Virus record (IMG/VR): IMGVR_UViG_2740892235_000005
Reading direction: 5' to 3' (one strand)
DNA from: a virus
Taxonomy: Duplodnaviria > Heunggongvirae > Uroviricota > Caudoviricetes
DNA length: 22,032 nt
The notes beneath the pieces are model-generated. The model saw only the letters and a list, made by a program, of their open reading frames with translations. It was not told where the DNA came from and ran no database searches. This document shows, one piece after another, positions 2,004-22,032 of the stretch. The stretch's first letter is position 1. Each line of letters begins with the position of its first letter. The position numbers were made by a program, and so were the translations under genes.

Positions 2004-5000
2004 TCAGCATTCCTCCGTCACGACGCATGGATAACATCACCGCCTGTACCCTCTGGTCTATCAGTTGCACAAGGGTGCCCGCCGCTTCCGGCCCTATCTG
2101 CCCGTTAGCGCCGTCATTCTGAATGGCGATGTGGTACACCGGGGAATACACCAGACCCGCACTGCCGTTCATGCGGCCCACCGCACGCACGCCGAGTGAA
2201 CCATCCGCTGCCCGGGTCAGGGGCATGATGGCTTCAGGTCCGGCCTCCCCCATCAGCCCTGCCCCTTTTGCAAAGGCAAAGTACGTGGGCGTGTCCACAA
2301 TACTGTTACTGTATGCACTCAGGTTTGCCGAGGTATAAACGCCGCCTTTTGCATTTGCCACCGCGCCACCCAGCCAGTTGCCTATACTGCCGAAAAATCC
2401 TCCTGCACCGGACATACTGTTTGCCGCCATCTTAATGCCGTTGACAATGGCCGCATTCATAAGAACTTTTGATATTTCCTGCAGGATTGATGCAGCCCAG
2501 CTGCGCCATTCCACTTTATTTCCGTTCAGCATCTCCGTGATGTTATTCACCATCCCTGAGATACCGTCTGTCGCAAGCTGTGCTGCCTGTGAAGCGTAAT
2601 CTGATGCGCTGTCCACCCAGTTACTTAGCCCTTCCTGCAGCCCTTTCTGCCAGTCAGCACGCTGCGCATCCGATTCGGCATAAAAAGCCTCCTGGTCTTT
2701 CAGTCGTTCACTCAGATACTGCGCATTCTGCGCCAGCGCCTGTCTGTAAAAATCCTCACTGATATCCCCTGTCTGATACTGAGACTGCAGGTCCGCATCC
2801 TTCTGGCGGTAGCCGTCACGAATCTGCTGCAGCTCCCGCATCCGTTCACGGACCCGCTCACCCTGCCCGTACCCCAGCAGCTCAGCGTCATTTGATGCCC
2901 TTTCGTCTGCATTATCATTTTTCAGAGCCTCCTCCCGGGCCCGTAACTGCTCCCGGATTTTCTTCTGGTCAATCAGGGCAGCATTGCGCAGCAGCTCCTG
3001 CTTCTGTATCTCCGTCAGGGTTTTCAGCTCGCCCTGCGAGGTCTGGTATTTCAGTTTTGCCAGTTCTGTATTCTTCCCGGCCAGTGCCAGTTGTTCCTTC
3101 TGCTGCTTCAGCAGACGGGAAAAACTGTCTTCCGCTTTTTCCGCCCCTGATTTTCCGGCCCGGGATTTGGGTTTATTCGCCTCATTATTGCGCCAGGCTT
3201 CCATCGAATTACGGATGTAACGCTGCCTCGCCTCCTGATACGTATCCCCCACCAGACCAAGGTCATCCGCCGCATACCCCAGCCGGGCACGCTCTTTTTC
3301 TTCCCCTTTCAGCCGGGACAGGGCAAGTTGACGCTCTGTGTTATTCAGGGCGCCCTGCTGTTTATCATCCAGAGTGGCCTGTGGCAGTCGCAGCGGTACA
3401 CTCGCCAGTCCCTGACGCTGTTGCAGCAGTTCATTACCCAGCCCCAGCAGGCGGTTGAATTCCGTATGCTGACCGTTCATGATCAGCAGTGACTGATACG
3501 CTTTATTCTGCTCTGCCGCCTGCTGACGAATTAACACAACACGGCGCTCTTCCAGTCCGGCAAGCACATCCTGAATGGACTGCGCTTTTTCCTGCATCTG
3601 TGCCAGACGGGACTGCTCAACAGCAAACTGCTCTGTTGCCTGAGCAAGCTCTTCCGTTACAGTTTTCACCGATGTCAGATGGTTTATCATGAAGCCGTTA
3701 CCGGTCGTCCAGCCCGGATTAGCCAGCACATACTGATACCCGGCGATTTTTTCCTGCAGGGATTTCACCCGGCTGGCCTGCTCATCAATCAGCCGGTTCT
3801 GCTCTGTCAGCGCCTCCCGTGTTCGCCCTTCATTATCTGAGGCTTCAGGCAGAGACATTGATGGCGTTTTATGCGCGATTTCATCAATCGTCAGTGCATA
3901 CTGGTGCGCAGACTCCCTGGCCTGTTCCTGATTCTGGTACAGCGTGTACCATGCGGCAGCTCCCAGCATCACCAGTCCGGGTACGCCTCCAATCAGTCCC
4001 AGCGCACCGCTCATCAGACGTGAGCCCACCGCCGTTGTACTGTTCAGCGCATTCTGGGCGGCGGTTCTGGCAGCAATATTTCTGTTCAGGCGTTCCTGTG
4101 TGACCGCCAGACGGGCCTCTGCGGCAATCTGCATCTCAGTCCCGCGGGCTGCCGCCACAGCCTGCTGAGCCCGGTACACGGCTGCCCTTGCCCGCGCAGT
4201 GGCAATCTGCGTTCCCCTTAACTGGGCCTCAGCCAGTGCCACTTCATTACGTGCAGCGGTCACAAGTCCTGCCGTGGCAGACATCGCTCCGGAAGCCAGA
4301 TTACCAAAGTACCGGGCCACCCCGACAGCAACCAGCACACCCGCAGCTGTTGCCACGGTATCAATATTTCCGGCCACACCGTTCAGCGCGCCGGAGAGCG
4401 TTTTCGTCGCTCCGCTGGCCTCATTCGCGCCGCCCACCCAGGCCATAAAGGCGTTTTCCACCTTCGTGATACTACCGGAAACCGTTTCCGGCATGGCTGC
4501 ATATTCATCACGCAATATCCCCAGCTGGCTGATTAACGCGGGAACGACTTTATCCGCCGTCAGTTGACCATCGTCCGCCATCGCCTTCAGATCCTTACGG
4601 GCCACGCCCATGCCTGCAGCCAGTGCGCGAATGATCCGGTCCCCACTTTCATTGACCGAATTAAATTCCTCGCCGCGCAACACCCCCTGTGCCAGCGCCT
4701 GGCTGAACTGGGTGATCACCGAACCCGCCTCTGCCGCACTGGCACCGGAAATTTTCAGCCCTGTCGAAATGGCCTCCGTCACCTTCAGCACATCATCAGC
4801 ACTGTAACCATATTCACGCATTGAGGCGGCAGAGCGGGCAAACAGGGCCGCATTATCCGAAAATGCGGTGCCTGTCCGCTGGCTGATATCCATCAGCACT
4901 TTCTGTGATGACGCAAATTCATCCGATGACTGCGACGCCTGTTTCAGACGGGCATTCACGGAACCCCATTCATCCGCCAGCGAAATCAGGTGTCCGGTGG

Positions 5001-16751: not shown

Positions 16752-16932
16752 GTCCGGTTTCTTCCACCATCGCACCGGACCAGCGACCATGAGGGGACAA
16801 CGCCGCGCTCCGTTAACGCGGTAAACCCCGGTGTGTATCGTTTTTGATTATCCCCGCACACTCGCGCAGAGGAGTCTCCCGGTCGGGCTGCGGTCTCTGT
16901 TAATGCAGGAATACGGCGACGATACGGCGCAT
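16752..16932. repeat. 181-bp conserved noncoding element, copy A (module-junction sequence)
   Basis: About 97% identical to 19307..19487; contains inverted repeats GTCCGGT...ACCGGAC and CCGCG-ctccgttaa-CGCGG. Confidence 0.8.
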
Positions 16933-16939
16933 AGTTATG

Positions 16940-17485
16940 TCAGGCTGAAATGCCTTTATCAAATCCGGGTAACGCAATCTGCCCCTGCTGCTCCAGCCTG
17001 TCCAGCCTTGCCAGCAACTGAGGCTTCTTCACCCTGCCCCAGCGATTGAGCAAGCGACCTGACATACTGGCGACATCCTTCTCTTTCATGTATTCCAGCA
17101 TGACTGCATTTCTCTCAGCTTCCAGGTGTGTTTTTCCCTGCATGATAAGTTCTGCCATCCAGTTGAAAGCCTGGATGTACGTAACCTTTATTTGCATCGC
17201 AGTCTTACCAGTAAACCCCATAACGACCAGCATGTAACCGTCTTTCGTCATGTTAAACATTGGCTGGACATCACCATTTTTATCAATAAAATCAGTAGGC
17301 TCAAAATTGAGCCGGGCAAAATCATCAGGACATTCAGAAATGGTTTGCCTGATCTTTCTTAATACGTTCTTATGACTCTTACCAAAAAATTCCGCCACTT
17401 TAATACTCGTGGTCAGGACAGAGCCTCCCACTACCATAACCATGTCACGAAAATCAATGCCGTTAACAACGGTAGAATATTTCAT
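16940..17485 (-). CDS. rha: phage regulatory protein Rha family
   Basis: 181-aa ORF; FGKSHKNVLRKIR and TKDGYMLVVMGFTGKTAMQIKVTYIQAFNWM fit the Rha family pattern. Confidence 0.8.
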   Translation of the reverse strand: MKYSTVVNGIDFRDMVMVVGGSVLTTSIKVAEFFGKSHKNVLRKIRQTISECPDDFARLNFEPTDFIDKNGDVQPMFNMTKDGYMLVVMGFTGKTAMQIKVTYIQAFNWMAELIMQGKTHLEAERNAVMLEYMKEKDVASMSGRLLNRWGRVKKPQLLARLDRLEQQGQIALPGFDKGISA

Positions 17486-17638
17486 AGCGTGTACCTGCTC
17501 TTTGAAATGAACCTTTGCCGCACAGGAAACCAGCCCACCGAGGCTCGCCAGAACTAACTGGTATCCTCAAAGGCTCATTCCAAAGGGGCAGGTTCGGTGG
17601 TTATCATGCGCTGCGGTGCGCGGTGAAATTCAGATATG

Positions 17639-17661
17639 AAAAAGCCAGCGATTAAGCTGGC
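17639..17661 (-). terminator. intrinsic terminator after Rz/Rz1 copy A
   Basis: Minus strand: GCCAGC-TTAATC-GCTGGC followed by TTTTT, 5 nt after the Rz stop. Confidence 0.6.
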
Positions 17662-17665
17662 TCTG

Positions 17666-18139
17666 TTAATTCAGGCACTGAGTGCGGATATATTCCTGAA
17701 GCGTTCTCAATGCGGCCTGATCGCTGATGATTCCGTCTCTGATACCGAGAACGTTTCGTCCAGCAACTGGAGAGAGTTCGACGGCGGCATCATTGCCCAC
17801 GCCGGAGGTGGTGGGGGCTTCACGCACGGAGCCTGGACAGGTGGCGTTGATCCGCAGGCGCTTACGACCAGCGGCAACATCAGCACGCAGAGTTTCATTT
17901 TCAGCTCTCGCATCGGCTAATTCCCTCGAGTATTTTGCATCGAGCGCAGCAACATCGCGCTGGCGCACCTGCATATCAGTAATGGTTGCGTTTGCCTGCT
18001 CCAGCTCTCTGGCTTTTTTATCGCGCTGCGCTTTGTAGGTGATGGCGTTATCGCGGTAATGATTCAGCCCCAGACTAAGCGCACCACAGACCACCAGCAG
18101 AATAACGGTAAACGCGGAAAGCATTCGGTTTATGCTCAC
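17666..18139 (-). CDS. Rz: i-spanin Rz (copy A)
   Basis: 157-aa ORF with N-terminal TM segment and [45 protein letters not shown], very close to recalled lambda Rz. Confidence 0.9.
17707..17913 (-). CDS. Rz1: o-spanin Rz1 (copy A), embedded in the +1 frame of Rz
   Basis: Lipobox LPLVVSAC then proline-rich [10 protein letters not shown], as in lambda Rz1; exact start codon uncertain. Confidence 0.8.
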
Positions 18140-18267
18140 TCCAGCAGCCCCGACGAAGACAACATCATCCAGCCCATGGAAAGAAAAAGAGCAACCAGCA
18201 TTAGTGAAAATGAAATGCCGACGATTACACAGAGGATCTTCGCCAGCATTATGAGTTTGTCTGACAT
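18136..18267 (-). CDS. small single-pass membrane protein (43 aa), unknown function
   Basis: [43 protein letters not shown]; strong RBS AAGGGAGGA; 4-nt ATGA overlap with the Rz start. Confidence 0.5.
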
Positions 18268-18281
18268 GCTTAATCCTCCCT

Positions 18282-18464
18282 TCACGATTTCAACGCAATG
18301 ACCAGTTTTGCCAGCCCATACAGTATCGGAGACACAGCGATACCGACCGCCACCCACTTAATAGCAAAAGCCAGCGCTCTACTGATGTCATCACTTACTG
18401 GCGCTTTCAGTTCAAGGCCGTTTTTCATAGTCAACCTCAACAGAATTCGTTTATACTTTTCCAT
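18282..18464 (-). CDS. small C-terminally anchored membrane protein (60 aa), unknown function
   Basis: [11 protein letters not shown]...[35 protein letters not shown] 5 nt before the ATG at 18464 (the longer ORF from 18497 lacks an RBS). Confidence 0.5.
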
Positions 18465-18491
18465 GTTCTCCCTTGCCTTATCCAAGGTCAG

Positions 18492-18531
18492 AAACACAAA
18501 ACCCCGCTTGCTGCCAACAAACGGGGTTTTT
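18492..18531. terminator. bidirectional terminator-like hairpin between endolysin A and the small membrane genes
   Basis: CCCCGCTTG-ctgccaa-CAAACGGGG flanked by AAACACAAAA on one side and TTTTTACTTTTATT on the other. Confidence 0.45.
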
Positions 18532-18620
18532 ACTTTTATTCACTTAGGTTTTGCCAGTTCGCAGGATTTCGTGTTATCCGTCCGCGTTGGCCAACGTCAT
18601 TTTTCAGCAAAATATTCTGC

Positions 18621-18784
18621 TTATCTGTCGATACCCCAGCACGCCAGCGCGCTCTCCTGGTCACGACGGGATACCTGACCATAGCAATTATTTGAGCGGA
18701 TACGGCAGTCTCTGCCACCGTCCTTAATCCACCAGCGAATCGCTTCACACGCTCCCCTGCGATCGCCTGCATTAATTCGTTTAT
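18621..18784 (-). CDS. SAR endolysin copy A, 3' fragment truncated by the scaffold gap
   Basis: In-frame translation ends ...[32 protein letters not shown], paralogous to the C-terminus of the complete lysozyme at 19961..20494 with many synonymous differences. Confidence 0.75.
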
Positions 18785-18794
18785 AAAACGTCGA
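18785..18794. other. assembly gap (10 N)
   Basis: Run of N; the 63 bp before it are identical to 20081..20143. Confidence 1.
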
Positions 18795-19084
18795 NNNNNN
18801 NNNNACACGAGCAGACCGGTTTCCTGCTCAAATTTCAGTCGGTCACGTTCTGACTGGTACCATGCTTTACGCGCATGAGGATCCATTTCCTCGTTATCTA
18901 CAGGCAGAGGAGCTTTCATCAGCTCGGCAAGGATATCTGTCAGTCGGTACAGTTTGAGATTGCTCTCATGGCCACCGGCTGGGCTTATGTTTTTTACCCG
19001 AGCCGCGACAGTCTGTCGATGAGCACCGGATAATGCAGCCAGTTGGGAAATATTCAGATGCAGATTTTTTAATTCACGATCCAT
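18795..19084 (-). CDS. Nu1-like terminase small subunit / winged-HTH DNA-binding protein, N-terminal fragment truncated by gap
   Basis: MDRELKNLHLNISQLAALSGAHRQTVAARVKN... has an N-terminal HTH like lambda gpNu1 and sits about 145 bp downstream of a cos-like GC block; the ORF-track product 18536..19084 is a chimera across the gap. Confidence 0.4.
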
Positions 19085-19228
19085 AACTCCCCCTGAAAAT
19101 TATGTAAATACACGCCAGTGATGAACAAAAAACAACCAAATTCGACACTAAAAATTTTTATTTTTCTATATATCAATAACTTACACTGGTGGTGATGGTG
19201 CCATAAAAATCAAAAAATGCGCCTTTTT

Positions 19229-19244
19229 CCGCGCCGCCCGCCCC
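19229..19244 (-). other. candidate lambda-type cosN-like GC block upstream of the Nu1-like gene
   Basis: Minus strand GGGGCGGGCGGCGCGG contains GGGCGGCG, the first 8 nt of the lambda cohesive end GGGCGGCGACCT; followed by an AT-rich stretch before the gene start. Confidence 0.3.
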
Positions 19245-19277
19245 GTGTTCAGGCCCACCCCACCAGGAGGACCCGCA

Positions 19278-19300
19278 AAAATGATAATGGTTATCATTTT
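19278..19300. repeat. perfect AT-rich palindrome AAAATGATAA-TGG-TTATCATTTT
   Basis: 10-bp arms with a 3-nt spacer, between the junction element and the cos-like block. Confidence 0.8.
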
Positions 19301-19306
19301 AATGTA

Positions 19307-19487
19307 GTCCGGTTTCTTCCACCATCGCACCGGACCAGCGACCATGAGGGGACAACGCCGCGCTCCGTTAACGCGGTAAACCCCGGTGTGTATCGTTTTT
19401 GATTATCCCCGCACACTCGCGCAGAGGAGTCTCCCTGTCGGGCTGCGGTCTCTGTTAATGAGGGAATACAGCGACGATACGGCGCAT
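19307..19487. repeat. 181-bp conserved noncoding element, copy B
   Basis: About 97% identical to 16752..16932; here it directly follows the Rz copy B stop. Confidence 0.8.
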
Positions 19488-19496
19488 CAGCAAAAC

Positions 19497-19982
19497 TTAG
19501 TTCAGGCACTGAGTGCGGATATATTCCTGCGCCCCTTCCAGCTGCTTCTGCATTGTCATCAACCGTTCTCTGAGGATGAAATAATCCCGTTCAGCGGTGT
19601 CTGCCAGTCGGGGGCCGGTTGCATTATCCACGCCGGAGGTGCCGGTGGCTTCACGCACGGTACCGTGGCAGGTGGCGTTGATCCGCAGGCGCTTACGACC
19701 AGCGGCAACGTCAGCGCGAAGAGTTTCATTTTCAGCTCTCGCATCGGCTAATTCCCTCGAGTATTTTGCATCGAGCGCAGCAACATCACGCTGGCGCACC
19801 TGCATGTCAGTAATGGTGGCATTCGCCTGTTCCAGCTCTCTGGCTTTTTTATCGCGCTGCGCTTTGTAGGTGATGGCGTTATCGCGGTAATGATTAACAG
19901 CCCATAACAGACAGACGATGATGCAGATAACCAGAGCGTAAATAATCGCGGTTACTCTTCTCACTGATCTATCCCCCAACAA
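19497..19982 (-). CDS. Rz: i-spanin Rz (copy B)
   Basis: 161-aa [38 protein letters not shown]... near-identical to lambda Rz over the N-terminal half; C-terminal third differs from copy A. Confidence 0.9.
19559..19744 (-). CDS. Rz1: o-spanin Rz1 (copy B), embedded in the +1 frame of Rz
   Basis: Lipobox LPLVVSAC then [32 protein letters not shown], very close to lambda Rz1. Confidence 0.85.
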
Positions 19983-20494
19983 GCTAATGCGCTTTCCTGG
20001 TCACGACGAATAACCTGTCCGTAGCAGTTATTTGAACGTGTGCGGCAATCACGCCCACCGTCCTTAATCCACCAGCGAATCGCTTCACACGCTCCCCTGC
20101 GATCGCCTGCATTAATTCGTTTATAAAACGTCGACGGGAAACACTTACCGGGGCCAATGTTGTAAGGACAGAATGACGCAATACCCGCTTTCTGGGGTTC
20201 AGTCAGTGGCACTTTGATGTTTTTCTCCACCCATGCCAGCGCCTTATCCCGTTCGATAGCGTTAACCCGGTCGCATTTTTCCTTCGACAGCTTCATGCCA
20301 GGAATAACAGGCTTACCATCCACCCGGGTGGCTCCACGGCAGATGGTCCAGATACCCGCACCATCACGGTATGCCGTGGTGTGGTTACCTTCTTTTTCGT
20401 CAAGAAACTGGTCGAGGATTTCAGGCGCAGAAGCCCCTGCGGCAATCAGCGCCAGAACGGCAGCTGACAGGCCGTATTTGATTTTTGCGTTCAT
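19961..20494 (-). CDS. R: SAR endolysin (GH24 phage lysozyme with N-terminal signal-arrest-release domain), copy B
   Basis: 177-aa ORF; Gly/Ala-rich weakly hydrophobic N-terminus ([18 protein letters not shown]) and E-x8-D-x5-T catalytic spacing ([16 protein letters not shown]), as in phage 21 R. Confidence 0.85.
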
Positions 20495-20546
20495 GGATAT
20501 TTATCAGGATTTATAGCTCTCTTATTCCTGGATATGTCAGATATAN

Positions 20547-20556
20547 NNNNNNNNNC
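20547..20556. other. assembly gap (10 N)
   Basis: Run of N; sequence after the gap (20557..20830) is about 95% identical to sequence before it (20268..20546). Confidence 1.
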
Positions 20557-20782
20557 GGTCGCATTTTTCCTTCGACAGCTTCATGCCAGGAATCACAGGC
20601 TTACCATCCACCATGATGGCACCTCGGCAGATGGTCCAGATACCCGCACCATCACGGTATGCCGTGGTGTGGTTGCCTTCCTTTTCATCCAGAAACTGGT
20701 CGAGGATTTCAGGCGCAGAAGCCCCTGCGGCAATCAGCGCCAGAACGGCAGCCGACAGGCCGTATTTGATTTTTGCGTTCAT
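20557..20782 (-). CDS. SAR endolysin copy C, 5' fragment truncated by the scaffold gap
   Basis: Encodes [75 protein letters not shown], differing from copy B at a few residues (TRV versus IMV). Confidence 0.7.
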
Positions 20783-20907
20783 GGATATTTATCAGGATTT
20801 ATAGCTCTCTTATTCCTGGATATGTCAGATATATAATCCGGTACTCACGATGAATATAATCAACAGGCACCAGGACACACCCGGTAACAACAAATGAGAT
20901 TTTATAA

Positions 20908-21228
20908 ATGAATAATAATGACAACAATTTACGCAAAGAGTTTTTGCAGATAATGAACGAAAATGTTAAATCAGAATTAAAAGCGCTTATCCCGGATAAC
21001 AGCGAGGCCACTCAGGCCATTCTCTCAGAGCCTTACGGCATGCTTTCAACAGAAACTCTGGATATCATTATCACCACATTAACACCATTGATGCTTCAGC
21101 ATCTGAAGCACAACATTAACAAATGGTTTAATGACGAACTCAGTCACCCGGGTTGTTCATGGGATAAAAACTTTGCCTGTCTGCAAAAAAAACGGCTCTT
21201 CAATAAACTATCGCTTAAGTTCAGATAA
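20908..21228 (+). CDS. hypothetical protein (106 aa) in an AT-rich insert, convergent with the 223-aa gene
   Basis: ORF only; Asn/Lys-rich low-GC sequence typical of acquired cargo; weak RBS; no recognised domain. Confidence 0.35.
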   Translation: MNNNDNNLRKEFLQIMNENVKSELKALIPDNSEATQAILSEPYGMLSTETLDIIITTLTPLMLQHLKHNINKWFNDELSHPGCSWDKNFACLQKKRLFNKLSLKFR

Positions 21229-21879
21229 CCTCTCCCCAAACCGCCCTTTCAGATAAGTCAGTCCGGGATGAAACCAGTAAGCCGGCACTTTTTTAAAGGG
21301 CGGGTTGTCAAACTCACGAAGAAGAGCCTCCCGCACAACTACATCCTTGTCAGCACCACAGGCAAGTGCTTCAATCTCTGCCGCCAGCTGCAGATATCCC
21401 ATGCAGCGACCAATGCGCTGCATCAGCCCCTGCTTTTTATTGTTCTTCATGTAATCAATGGCAAATTCAATAAGCGCCTCACTGTGCTGGTGCGATGCTG
21501 GTGTTACTTTTCCATCTTCACTGATCGTGATATTCCAGTCATCGCTTGTCACAATAAAAGATGGCCGATTACCCCCCCATTCCTGGTCTTTATCCGGTGC
21601 AGACGCAATAAAATAACGTTTATTGCCGTCCTCTCCGGCACTTTTAACCGTAATGGAGTACTTTTCTGACAATGCGGTCGGTAAAAACTTTTCCTGCAAA
21701 ATATTCGCAAAGATCCTGCGAGCAATTTTGATGCAATCATCGTAAAACGCCGCAAACTGCTCATCGCGGCGTTTGTTTGCATCTTCAGAAGGCATCAGCG
21801 CCGACAGTTTTTTATTCAGTTCAGCAATTTCATTTTCCAGACGACTGAAGCGCTGATTCATTTCTTCATGATTCATCAC
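21208..21879 (-). CDS. hypothetical protein (about 222 aa) inserted between pinholin and endolysin
   Basis: ORF with RBS GGAGAG before the ATG at 21876 (GTG at 21879 also possible), coupled to the pinholin stop; N-terminal coiled-coil-like segment; no recognised domain. Confidence 0.55.
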   Translation of the reverse strand: MMNHEEMNQRFSRLENEIAELNKKLSALMPSEDANKRRDEQFAAFYDDCIKIARRIFANILQEKFLPTALSEKYSITVKSAGEDGNKRYFIASAPDKDQEWGGNRPSFIVTSDDWNITISEDGKVTPASHQHSEALIEFAIDYMKNNKKQGLMQRIGRCMGYLQLAAEIEALACGADKDVVVREALLREFDNPPFKKVPAYWFHPGLTYLKGRFGERLSELKR

Positions 21880-22032
21880 CTACTCTCCCCGTGCCGCCTT
21901 ACGACGGTCTTCTTTAATCTTGAAATACAGGTTCGTTAGATATGTCAGCAGCCCAAACAGCAGACTCCCCAGCACGCCTATTGCCGCCCACTGAGACGGG
22001 GAAACCCTGTCCAGCAACTGCAGGAACCAGTA
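21880..22032 (-). CDS. S: class II pinholin (phage 21 S21 / EssD-like), 3' fragment; gene starts beyond window end
   Basis: Minus-strand translation [50 protein letters not shown] matches the recalled C-terminal half of S21/EssD. Confidence 0.75.

Follow-up and report, generated by a model that had tools for sequence, protein, structure and literature searches.

What are two tiny membrane-protein genes doing between the endolysin and spanin genes of a lambdoid lysis cassette? The question is raised by IMG/VR virus record IMGVR_UViG_2740892235_000005 (Caudoviricetes), a stretch of 22,032 nucleotides (nt) that we refer to as the window, in which the gene for the endolysin lysozyme A and the Rz spanin gene are held apart by DNA carrying two small open reading frames (ORFs) of 60 and 43 amino acids (aa), here termed p60 and p43. 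A preliminary description of this locus, cassette A, had suggested that small membrane proteins at such a position could be antiholin-like lysis regulators, membrane toxins or exclusion factors. The region is an insert with a real hairpin structure at its head, both ORFs are coding and have membrane character, and the junctions between the genes can be read directly. We propose, tentatively, that p60 and p43 are two independent moron-like inserts encoding tiny inner-membrane proteins made late only, with p43 also feeding ribosomes to Rz, and that they serve as non-essential, generic modifiers of lysis.

The genes for lysozyme A, p60, p43, Rz and Rz1 are all encoded on the minus strand. The DNA between the end of the lysozyme gene (stop codon at 18621) and the GTG start of Rz at 18139 measures 481 bp, very close to the preliminary estimate of about 480 bp. 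Downstream of the lysozyme stop codon there follow in order an A tract, a stem-loop, a U-rich tail, a leader, p60, a spacer, p43, Rz and Rz1. From the hairpin tail to the start of p60 there is a 33-nt leader (18465-18497); p60 itself (WP_072024677.1) occupies 18282-18464, and its TGA is directly followed by a 14-nt spacer (18268-18281; TGAAGGGAGGATTAAGCATG) that is the same in most loci and contains the Shine-Dalgarno (SD) site of p43 (WP_001280926.1; 18136-18267). The complete genome of E. coli RM10466 is 100% identical over 17640-18794, and RefSeq calls exactly these two ORFs there, as hypothetical proteins, so that their coordinates and sizes stand as first described. That the region is an insertion between otherwise adjacent genes is seen from the second lysis cassette of the window, cassette B, in which the endolysin gene overlaps Rz directly without p60 or p43, as the preliminary description had noted, and from the K-12 Qin prophage, which has neither gene and in which rrrQ abuts rzpQ. 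The base composition of the insert is likewise distinct, with a G+C content of 45.5-46.2% as against 53-55% in the lysozyme and Rz flanks.

Are the two ORFs genes? Their substitution patterns argue that both are genuine protein-coding genes. The comparison for p60 covered 28 distinct coding sequences, taken from E. coli, E. marmotae and Salmonella, and in codons 19-60 the pairwise ratio of non-synonymous to synonymous differences (pN/pS) is 0.14-0.26 at a pS of 0.57-0.73, with most codons of this part present in two to four synonymous variants yet specifying one amino acid. In the case of p43, the length of 43 aa is constant among variants that are 25-40% divergent, pN/pS is about 0.3-0.45 where pS exceeds 0.4, and the copies in loci L032 and L065 are separated by 11 synonymous changes to 1 non-synonymous change. 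The preliminary description had left room for conservation of the DNA without conservation of the ORFs; instead, both are under purifying selection and hence represent more than chance ORFs.

The protein families to which they belong are without assigned function. The match of p60 to phrog_1115 covers its full length (residues 1-60, E = 2.5e-41) and that of p43 to phrog_4906 covers residues 1-42 (E = 5.2e-21); both families are unassigned in function, as are the other p60-related PHROGs, phrog_4493 and phrog_3246, and none of the named members of the p43 family (BP-4795 ORF50, P13374 ORF53 and Sakai Sp6 ECs_5713) has a described function. Searches of Pfam, NCBIfam, PADLOC and PDB chains gave no usable match to either protein, with no Pfam family at E <= 1 for p60 and nothing but DUF3930 at E = 0.13 for p43. 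The p60 family is narrow: a profile search of 1.84 billion representatives yielded 21 relatives only, and pattern matches in genome contigs were not upheld by tblastn. In these distant relatives a transmembrane (TM) helix comes after an N-terminal signature that can be written x-Y-(K/R)-x-x-(L/F)-R-L-x-M-K-(N/D)-G-x-E-x-x-A-P. Because this signature is retained, the extension ahead of the in-frame Met13 is presumably translated. Met13 has GAGG ahead of it and could be a second start of the dual-start type seen in holin genes; many annotators call the shorter, 48-aa form.

In p60 a basic amphipathic N-terminal helix (hydrophobic moment, muH, 0.71) is followed by a short linker with an MKNGLExxAP motif and then by a long, weakly hydrophobic, Ala/Gly/Ser-rich C-terminal helix that includes Lys36, Pro46 and Lys53 and has just two residues beyond it. 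AlphaFold2 models helices at residues 2-14 and 25-59 (pLDDT 73), in keeping with the C-terminal TM anchor proposed earlier, and p60 is thus predicted to be a tail-anchored inner-membrane protein with its N-terminal helix on the cytoplasmic side. The single-pass nature ascribed to p43 also holds, since residues 11-29 form one very hydrophobic helix with 4-8 polar residues at either end. Neither protein matches a holin or antiholin family (in Pfam, or in any PHROG with a lysis annotation), and the charged C-terminal tail typical of holins is missing, p60 ending ...LVIALKS right after the TM helix and p43 ending ...SSGLLE. There is no lipobox and no periplasmic domain in either, and the true Rz and Rz1 genes lie downstream. 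Judged by their sequences, p60 and p43 are not spanins and, on the criteria of family match and charged tail, not holins or antiholins.

Several variant forms of these genes were observed in related loci. A second p60 subtype ends ...AIRWW (L105 1580-1760, from an O111:H8 prophage; L007 3190-3281; L100 325-737; L103 733-830; L104 2501-3403), and its terminal codons, CGC-TGG-TGG-TGA/TAG, provide an SD-like GGUGG for the next late gene, which is Rz, the portal gene or a signal-anchor-release (SAR) endolysin gene. In the O111:H8 prophage this subtype stands in for both p60 and p43, and PGAP/RefSeq calls just its last 37 aa. Salmonella and O111:H8 copies of p60 (L083 3960-4003; L088-L090 about 2960-3010; L105 1585-1612) are preceded by an 8-codon ORF, MCREVYSL or MGREVLSL, that begins after a conserved GGGAGAA and whose TGA shares bases with a GTG start of p60, an arrangement that suggests leader-peptide coupling. 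ORFs of 83-90 aa that combine a frameshifted p43 with residues 23-60 of p60 (L087 4001-4252; P0089-P0094, phrog_3246) look like decay products in cassettes with a truncated Rz rather than functional fusions. ORFs like these, in which the N-terminus of p43 is joined to the C-terminus of p60 (P0089, P0093, phrog_3246), were considered as 'Rosetta-stone' evidence for interaction and rejected, as they are rearranged, frameshifted remnants in a truncated-Rz cassette.

How would the two genes be translated, and what do they mean for Rz? Each would be translated from its own SD site. That of p43, GGGAGGA at 6-7 nt ahead of the ATG, is strong, while that of p60, AAGGGAG, is moderate, being just 3 nt ahead of the ATG and partly held in a 5-bp leader hairpin (18465-18487; CCTTG at 18487-18483 paired with CAAGG at 18475-18471), such that the near-consensus sites claimed earlier for both genes apply fully only to p43. 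The TGA of p43 shares bases with the Rz GTG (18139-18137), the junction being GTGA and not the ATGA first described. The first ATG of Rz, which is the start chosen by PGAP, is at 18124, 12 nt downstream of the GTG, and there is no SD site before either start. Because neither has one, translation of Rz appears to be coupled to that of p43, and ribosomes ending p43 would re-initiate at the SD-less Rz start via the GTGA overlap.

This arrangement also raises the possibility that the peptides themselves have little function, and that the ORFs are selfish passengers acting as translational adaptors that ferry ribosomes over the inserted DNA to the SD-less Rz. We regard this as doubtful and the least probable of the explanations considered. 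It draws on the lack of an SD site for Rz and the overlap of the Rz start with the p43 stop codon, on the SD-like site that the end codons of the RWW subtype give to the next late gene, and on the frameshifted copies of p43, which hold the same stop position; but pN/pS is well below 1 for both genes, the length and TM character of p43 are kept over 25-40% protein divergence, the N-terminal motif of p60 is kept in distant relatives, and p60 does not abut Rz in the window.

How widespread are the genes, and do they belong together? Among complete E. coli genomes, with at least 80% of the query covered, p60 with its hairpin and leader is present in 1,037 of 5,426 (about 19%) and p43 in 1,536 (about 28%). 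Deposited phage genomes include p60 in just 14 of 50,697 records, with full-length copies in the plaque-forming PhiR12/PhiR5 series, and p43 in 276, mostly phages converting for Shiga toxin (Stx1 or Stx2). The PhiR12 and PhiR5 phages hold both genes, and given this and the 276 phage records with p43, the two are compatible with viable phages. In 80 loci on viral contigs, whose Rz proteins are 55 to 100% identical, the usual order is lysozyme, 160 nt, p60, 17 nt, p43 and Rz, and in these as well as in Salmonella loci the gene directly ahead of Rz is p60 or p43. Salmonella prophages have p60 without p43, 10 nt ahead of Rz, while p43 occurs without p60 in Sakai Sp6 (O157:H7), BP-4795 and P13374, in the last two of which (ORF50 and ORF53, respectively) it lies between ant and Rz. 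Hence p60 and p43 are independent units. The upstream neighbour of p60 may be a PF00959 lysozyme, a glycoside hydrolase family 19 (GH19) enzyme, a GH108 enzyme with a peptidoglycan-binding domain, an unassigned 138-aa protein or, once, an antirepressor, and one of its distant relatives is found after a capsid gene, adjoining a holin-like gene and a SAR endolysin gene. Taken together, the composition, variable presence and varied contexts of the inserts mark them as mobile and moron-like, and not as partner-specific lysis regulators.

Other rearrangements around these genes were also seen. A gene for a 311-aa DNA methyltransferase is located between p43 and Rz in L011 and L023 (3337-4272), and because it is inserted there in some prophages, the junction just ahead of Rz would seem to be a recurrent insertion site. 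In cassettes with GH108 endolysins (L051 3190-3374; L092 3341-3521; L093), the place of Rz/Rz1 after p60, whether or not p43 is also present, is taken by a 60-aa lipoprotein that has the lipobox LVGC, and L093 contains tandem duplicated units of a p60 variant, p43 and the lipoprotein (2360-2542 and 3326-3508).

When are p60 and p43 expressed? The terminator-like element of the preliminary description, which we located by scanning and folding at 18488-18545, consists of an A tract (18545-18531), a G+C-rich stem-loop of 15 pairs (18530-18498) and a U-rich tail (18497-18488), the stem-loop being followed by GTGTTTCTGA; folding of the intergenic RNA gave z = -3.6. Two positions of the stem show compensatory changes (AU/UG/GC/UA and UA/CG/UG), and since its G.U pairs exist on the sense strand only, the antisense strand having C.A mismatches, it is the sense RNA that is the selected structure. 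A hairpin is present ahead of all examined p60-family genes with a conserved N-terminus, whatever the upstream gene, and the A tract is kept behind unrelated genes. Because a U-rich tail comes next, the hairpin would act as an intrinsic terminator oriented with late transcription, and because the upstream A tract is also conserved, it could terminate both ways. The only Rfam result on the region was a sub-threshold match to rimP on the hairpin (E = 0.15), and scanning the sense strand from lysozyme to Rz with a consensus revealed no sigma-70-like site. In lambdoid phages, late transcription is carried out by Q-modified polymerase, which passes through terminators. With no sense promoter found and a terminator upstream, p60, p43, Rz and Rz1 are probably transcribed only under Q antitermination.

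A moron in the classical sense would instead serve the lysogen, and p60 and p43 could be expressed from the prophage for superinfection exclusion or some other inner-membrane fitness effect, with their position in a lysis cassette being incidental. HK97 gp15, P22 Sie and T4 Imm act in this way. The lower G+C content of the insert and its variable presence among otherwise similar cassettes would be expected of such genes, as would the p60 relatives at typical moron sites after tail-fibre genes and the occurrence of the module in 19-28% of complete E. coli genomes when p60 is in merely 14 of the deposited phage genomes. We nevertheless consider it unlikely, as a lysogen-expressed factor such as an exclusion protein is argued against by the failure to find a sense-strand promoter and by the conserved terminator, which is directly upstream rather than downstream. 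The genes are also tightly packed and apparently coupled to Rz, and neither matches a PADLOC anti-phage defense model.

The account that we tentatively prefer can now be set out in full. The genes p60 and p43 would each have entered the late operon separately, as a moron-like insert at the R/Rz junction. In the lysogen, the upstream terminator would keep them silent and insulated from other transcription, and they would be made when Q-modified, terminator-resistant polymerase reads the late operon, alongside the lysis genes. The proteins may then act generically on the inner membrane and adjust when lysis occurs or how complete it is, for example by way of membrane energization or the behavior of membrane-tethered lysis proteins, and would do so without binding one particular holin or endolysin. 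In this account p60 and p43 are most likely non-essential accessory lysis proteins, and set against the three roles raised in the preliminary description, a generic membrane-active late protein is the most plausible reading.

A number of observations weigh against this account. The endolysins that accompany p60 in Escherichia and Salmonella fall into four or more non-homologous families, the holins found with it come from at least four as well, and some of its distant relatives map downstream of tail-fibre genes or to the interval from terminase to portal; with relatives at such sites, the function of p60 may be unconnected with lysis. About 8 of 93 copies of p43 are frameshifted in the C-terminal third, which makes p43 appear dispensable. 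The promoter scan was a crude consensus search that a weak or non-sigma-70 promoter may escape, and no paper mentioning p60 or p43 was found in the literature. Lastly, copies from E. coli and Salmonella do not differ by a single synonymous change in codons 3-18 of p60 (18411-18458) or in the leader (Fisher p = 5e-5 to 1e-3), and this invariance at the nucleotide level points to an extra function beyond those proposed above. The variety of endolysins and holins that accompany p60, together with the relatives outside lysis cassettes, also makes a partner-specific antiholin unlikely. What survives of the earlier interpretation is therefore that these are real, conserved membrane-protein genes, arranged so as to be translated and inserted relative to cassettes in which R and Rz overlap, with the partner-specific antiholin improbable and the lysogen exclusion factor argued against.

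What might the invariant block be for? The remainder of p60 is near synonymous saturation (pS 0.57-0.73), and within the leader the 5-bp stem CCTTG/CAAGG is invariant in Escherichia and Salmonella copies while its loop is variable. Possible causes are a promoter on the antisense strand, structure in the RNA and a patch of homology for mosaic recombination. A sense-strand hairpin around Met13 was rejected as the cause, since L099 and L105 do not retain it. A candidate antisense promoter, TAGTCA-18-TATACT, is present on the plus strand within codons 3-13 (18428-18457), the sole site of the region where 1.3 would be expected by chance, and it could direct a transcript some 80 nt long (roughly 18465-18545) that is complementary to the SD site and leader of p60 and ends at the hairpin, acting as a bidirectional terminator. 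On this basis p60 could be a toxic peptide repressed by an antisense RNA made in cis, as in type I toxin-antitoxin systems or P22 sar/ant. We judge this explanation, including the antisense arrangement just described, to be rather improbable. An extended form of it, of similarly low probability, is that the p60 unit (A tract, hairpin, leader and the first 18 codons) is a regulatory cassette complete in itself, apparently mobile among late-operon junctions of many enterobacterial phages, and serves as an RNA timer for a membrane-active lysis effector. In it the antisense RNA would silence the toxic tail-anchored peptide until late transcripts out-titrate it, and p43 would gate Rz synthesis and thereby influence when the lysis that releases toxin takes place.

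The evidence on this antisense RNA is mixed. The site is the only promoter-like one in the region and it coincides with codons and a leader that lack synonymous change; it is kept or improved in divergent copies, with TTGTCA in L091, TGGACA in L105 and TATAAT in L103; the conserved A tract would be a U tail on the antisense strand; and folding of the predicted RNA is favorable (z = -3.3 and -5.4). On the other hand, L100 and L104 lack the site or have it mis-spaced, and synonymous recoding of the same peptide yields such a site in 34-41% of random versions, so that its presence is not significant and can largely be put down to the K-Y-K...L-T-M sequence. The antisense hairpin has C.A mismatches where the sense strand has G.U pairs, p60 is without the promoter of its own that type I toxins have, and there is no Rfam family at the locus beyond the rimP match. 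In view of the recodings and of the distant relatives that lack the site, the promoter evidence is weak, and we therefore keep an antisense RNA as a minority hypothesis. The locus is also not among the published Hfq-bound prophage small RNAs (sRNAs) that could be checked. Two sets of these were considered and rejected as identities for it, namely the enterohemorrhagic E. coli (EHEC) prophage sRNA HnrS (EcOnc10-12), which must include a sequence complementary to the final 15 nt of mazF, absent here, and EcOnc22-24, which map to tail genes, with Sakai Sp6 having p43 but not p60.

The possible physiological importance of these proteins lies in where they are found. Shiga toxin exits the cell through phage lysis, and p43 is present in most sequenced Shiga-toxin phages, where it directly precedes the spanin gene, although neither it nor p60 has been named or is in Pfam. 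If the two adjust lysis timing or spanin synthesis, burst size and Shiga toxin release would both be affected. A terminator ahead of a tiny membrane-protein gene in a late operon would also represent a little-described way to insert a potentially toxic gene such that it is read by antiterminated polymerase only. If, on the other hand, p60 and p43 are neutral, they are one further pair of conserved hypothetical moron genes.

The remaining features of the window are as follows. The i-spanin Rz (17666-18139, minus strand) is identified by PF03245 (E = 2.4e-39) and phrog_13, and the o-spanin lipoprotein Rz1 is encoded inside it (17707-17913, minus strand), with the lipobox VVSAC and a proline-rich mature part that are kept in related loci. 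A moron-like prophage gene (16277-16618, minus strand), located between the genes for Rha and for terminase, encodes a 113-aa lipoprotein (LVMGC) that matches the TonB C-terminal domain family (PF03544, E = 5.8e-15). Between a (truncated) class II holin gene and lysozyme A are a 223-aa gene (21208-21879, minus strand) and, on the opposite strand, a 106-aa gene (20908-21228, plus strand), both hypothetical, and with these two present the holin-endolysin junction has inserts too.

Cassettes A and B are both within the window, which raises the question of whether they are neighbors in a genome. Runs of ten N are found at 18795-18804 and 20546-20555, and the 1.7-kb contig between them (18805-20545) encodes the endolysin R-B, Rz-B/Rz1-B and the N-terminus of a Nu1-like terminase subunit. 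The window on either side (11640-18794 and 20556-22032) is collinear with one intact RM10466 prophage at 99.9% identity, with 20556-22032 corresponding to L001 7289-8765 (99.9%), whereas the contig is merely 92-98% identical to parts of L001 and takes the place of 133 bp of the lysozyme gene. The 3' part of lysozyme A, a SAR endolysin of the R21/RrrQ type (18621-18794, minus strand; ending ...ALACWGIDR), is cut by the first gap and collinear with the intact RM10466 lysozyme, and its 5' part lies beyond the scaffolded insert (20556-20782, minus strand). By these alignments, cassette B is a short contig of another lambdoid prophage scaffolded into lysozyme A, and not an actual neighbor of cassette A, and the comparison of the two is still fair, as one between the cassettes of two prophages. 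A 182-aa ORF across the gap (18536-19084, minus strand) is chimeric, joining the N-terminus of Nu1 to lysozyme sequence read out of frame. Near-identical repeats (16539-16861 and 19181-19509) are located downstream of Rz in both prophage pieces and have the same spurious ORFs (MVAGPVRWWKKPD...), and it was probably repeats of this kind that broke the assembly here.

How, then, do p60 and p43 compare with known systems? Both are small peptides, no longer than about 60 aa, that contain one hydrophobic helix, as do the type I toxins Hok, TisB, Ibs, Ldr and ZorO, and the candidate antisense transcript, which would cover the ribosome binding site and end at a shared hairpin, resembles that of P22 sar/ant. 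Unlike type I toxins, p60 has no toxin promoter of its own in the sense-strand consensus scan and no long 5' untranslated region, and its antisense promoter is without statistical support. A closer parallel in position is provided by P2 lysA, which occupies the slot between the endolysin gene K and lysB/lysC, that is, the endolysin-spanin slot in which p60 and p43 are found. Accessory, non-essential membrane proteins of lysis cassettes also include LydB, LydC and LydD of P1 (PMC9025707) and the Mu gp25 releasin (PMC9239132). Like these and LysA, p60 and p43 are small membrane proteins encoded within a lysis cassette and, we infer, co-expressed with it; unlike them, they are much smaller, with one TM helix each and no sequence similarity, are not bound to one type of holin or endolysin and have relatives outside lysis cassettes. 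The lambdoid morons (Juhala et al. 2000, as cited in PMC4104026) include, for example, bor, lom and HK97 gp15. In textbook form a moron has its own promoter upstream and a terminator downstream and is expressed in the lysogen. The p60 and p43 genes depart from this in having no detected promoter, a terminator that is upstream of p60 and not downstream, and an apparent translational link to Rz. They resemble the lambdoid morons in sitting between genes that are adjacent in related phages, in being present in some of these only, in having a base composition that differs from that of the flanks (46% as against 53-55% G+C) and in encoding small membrane or envelope products. The p60 and p43 genes are thus real and occur widely, especially in Stx phages, but they do not amount to a new kind of element.

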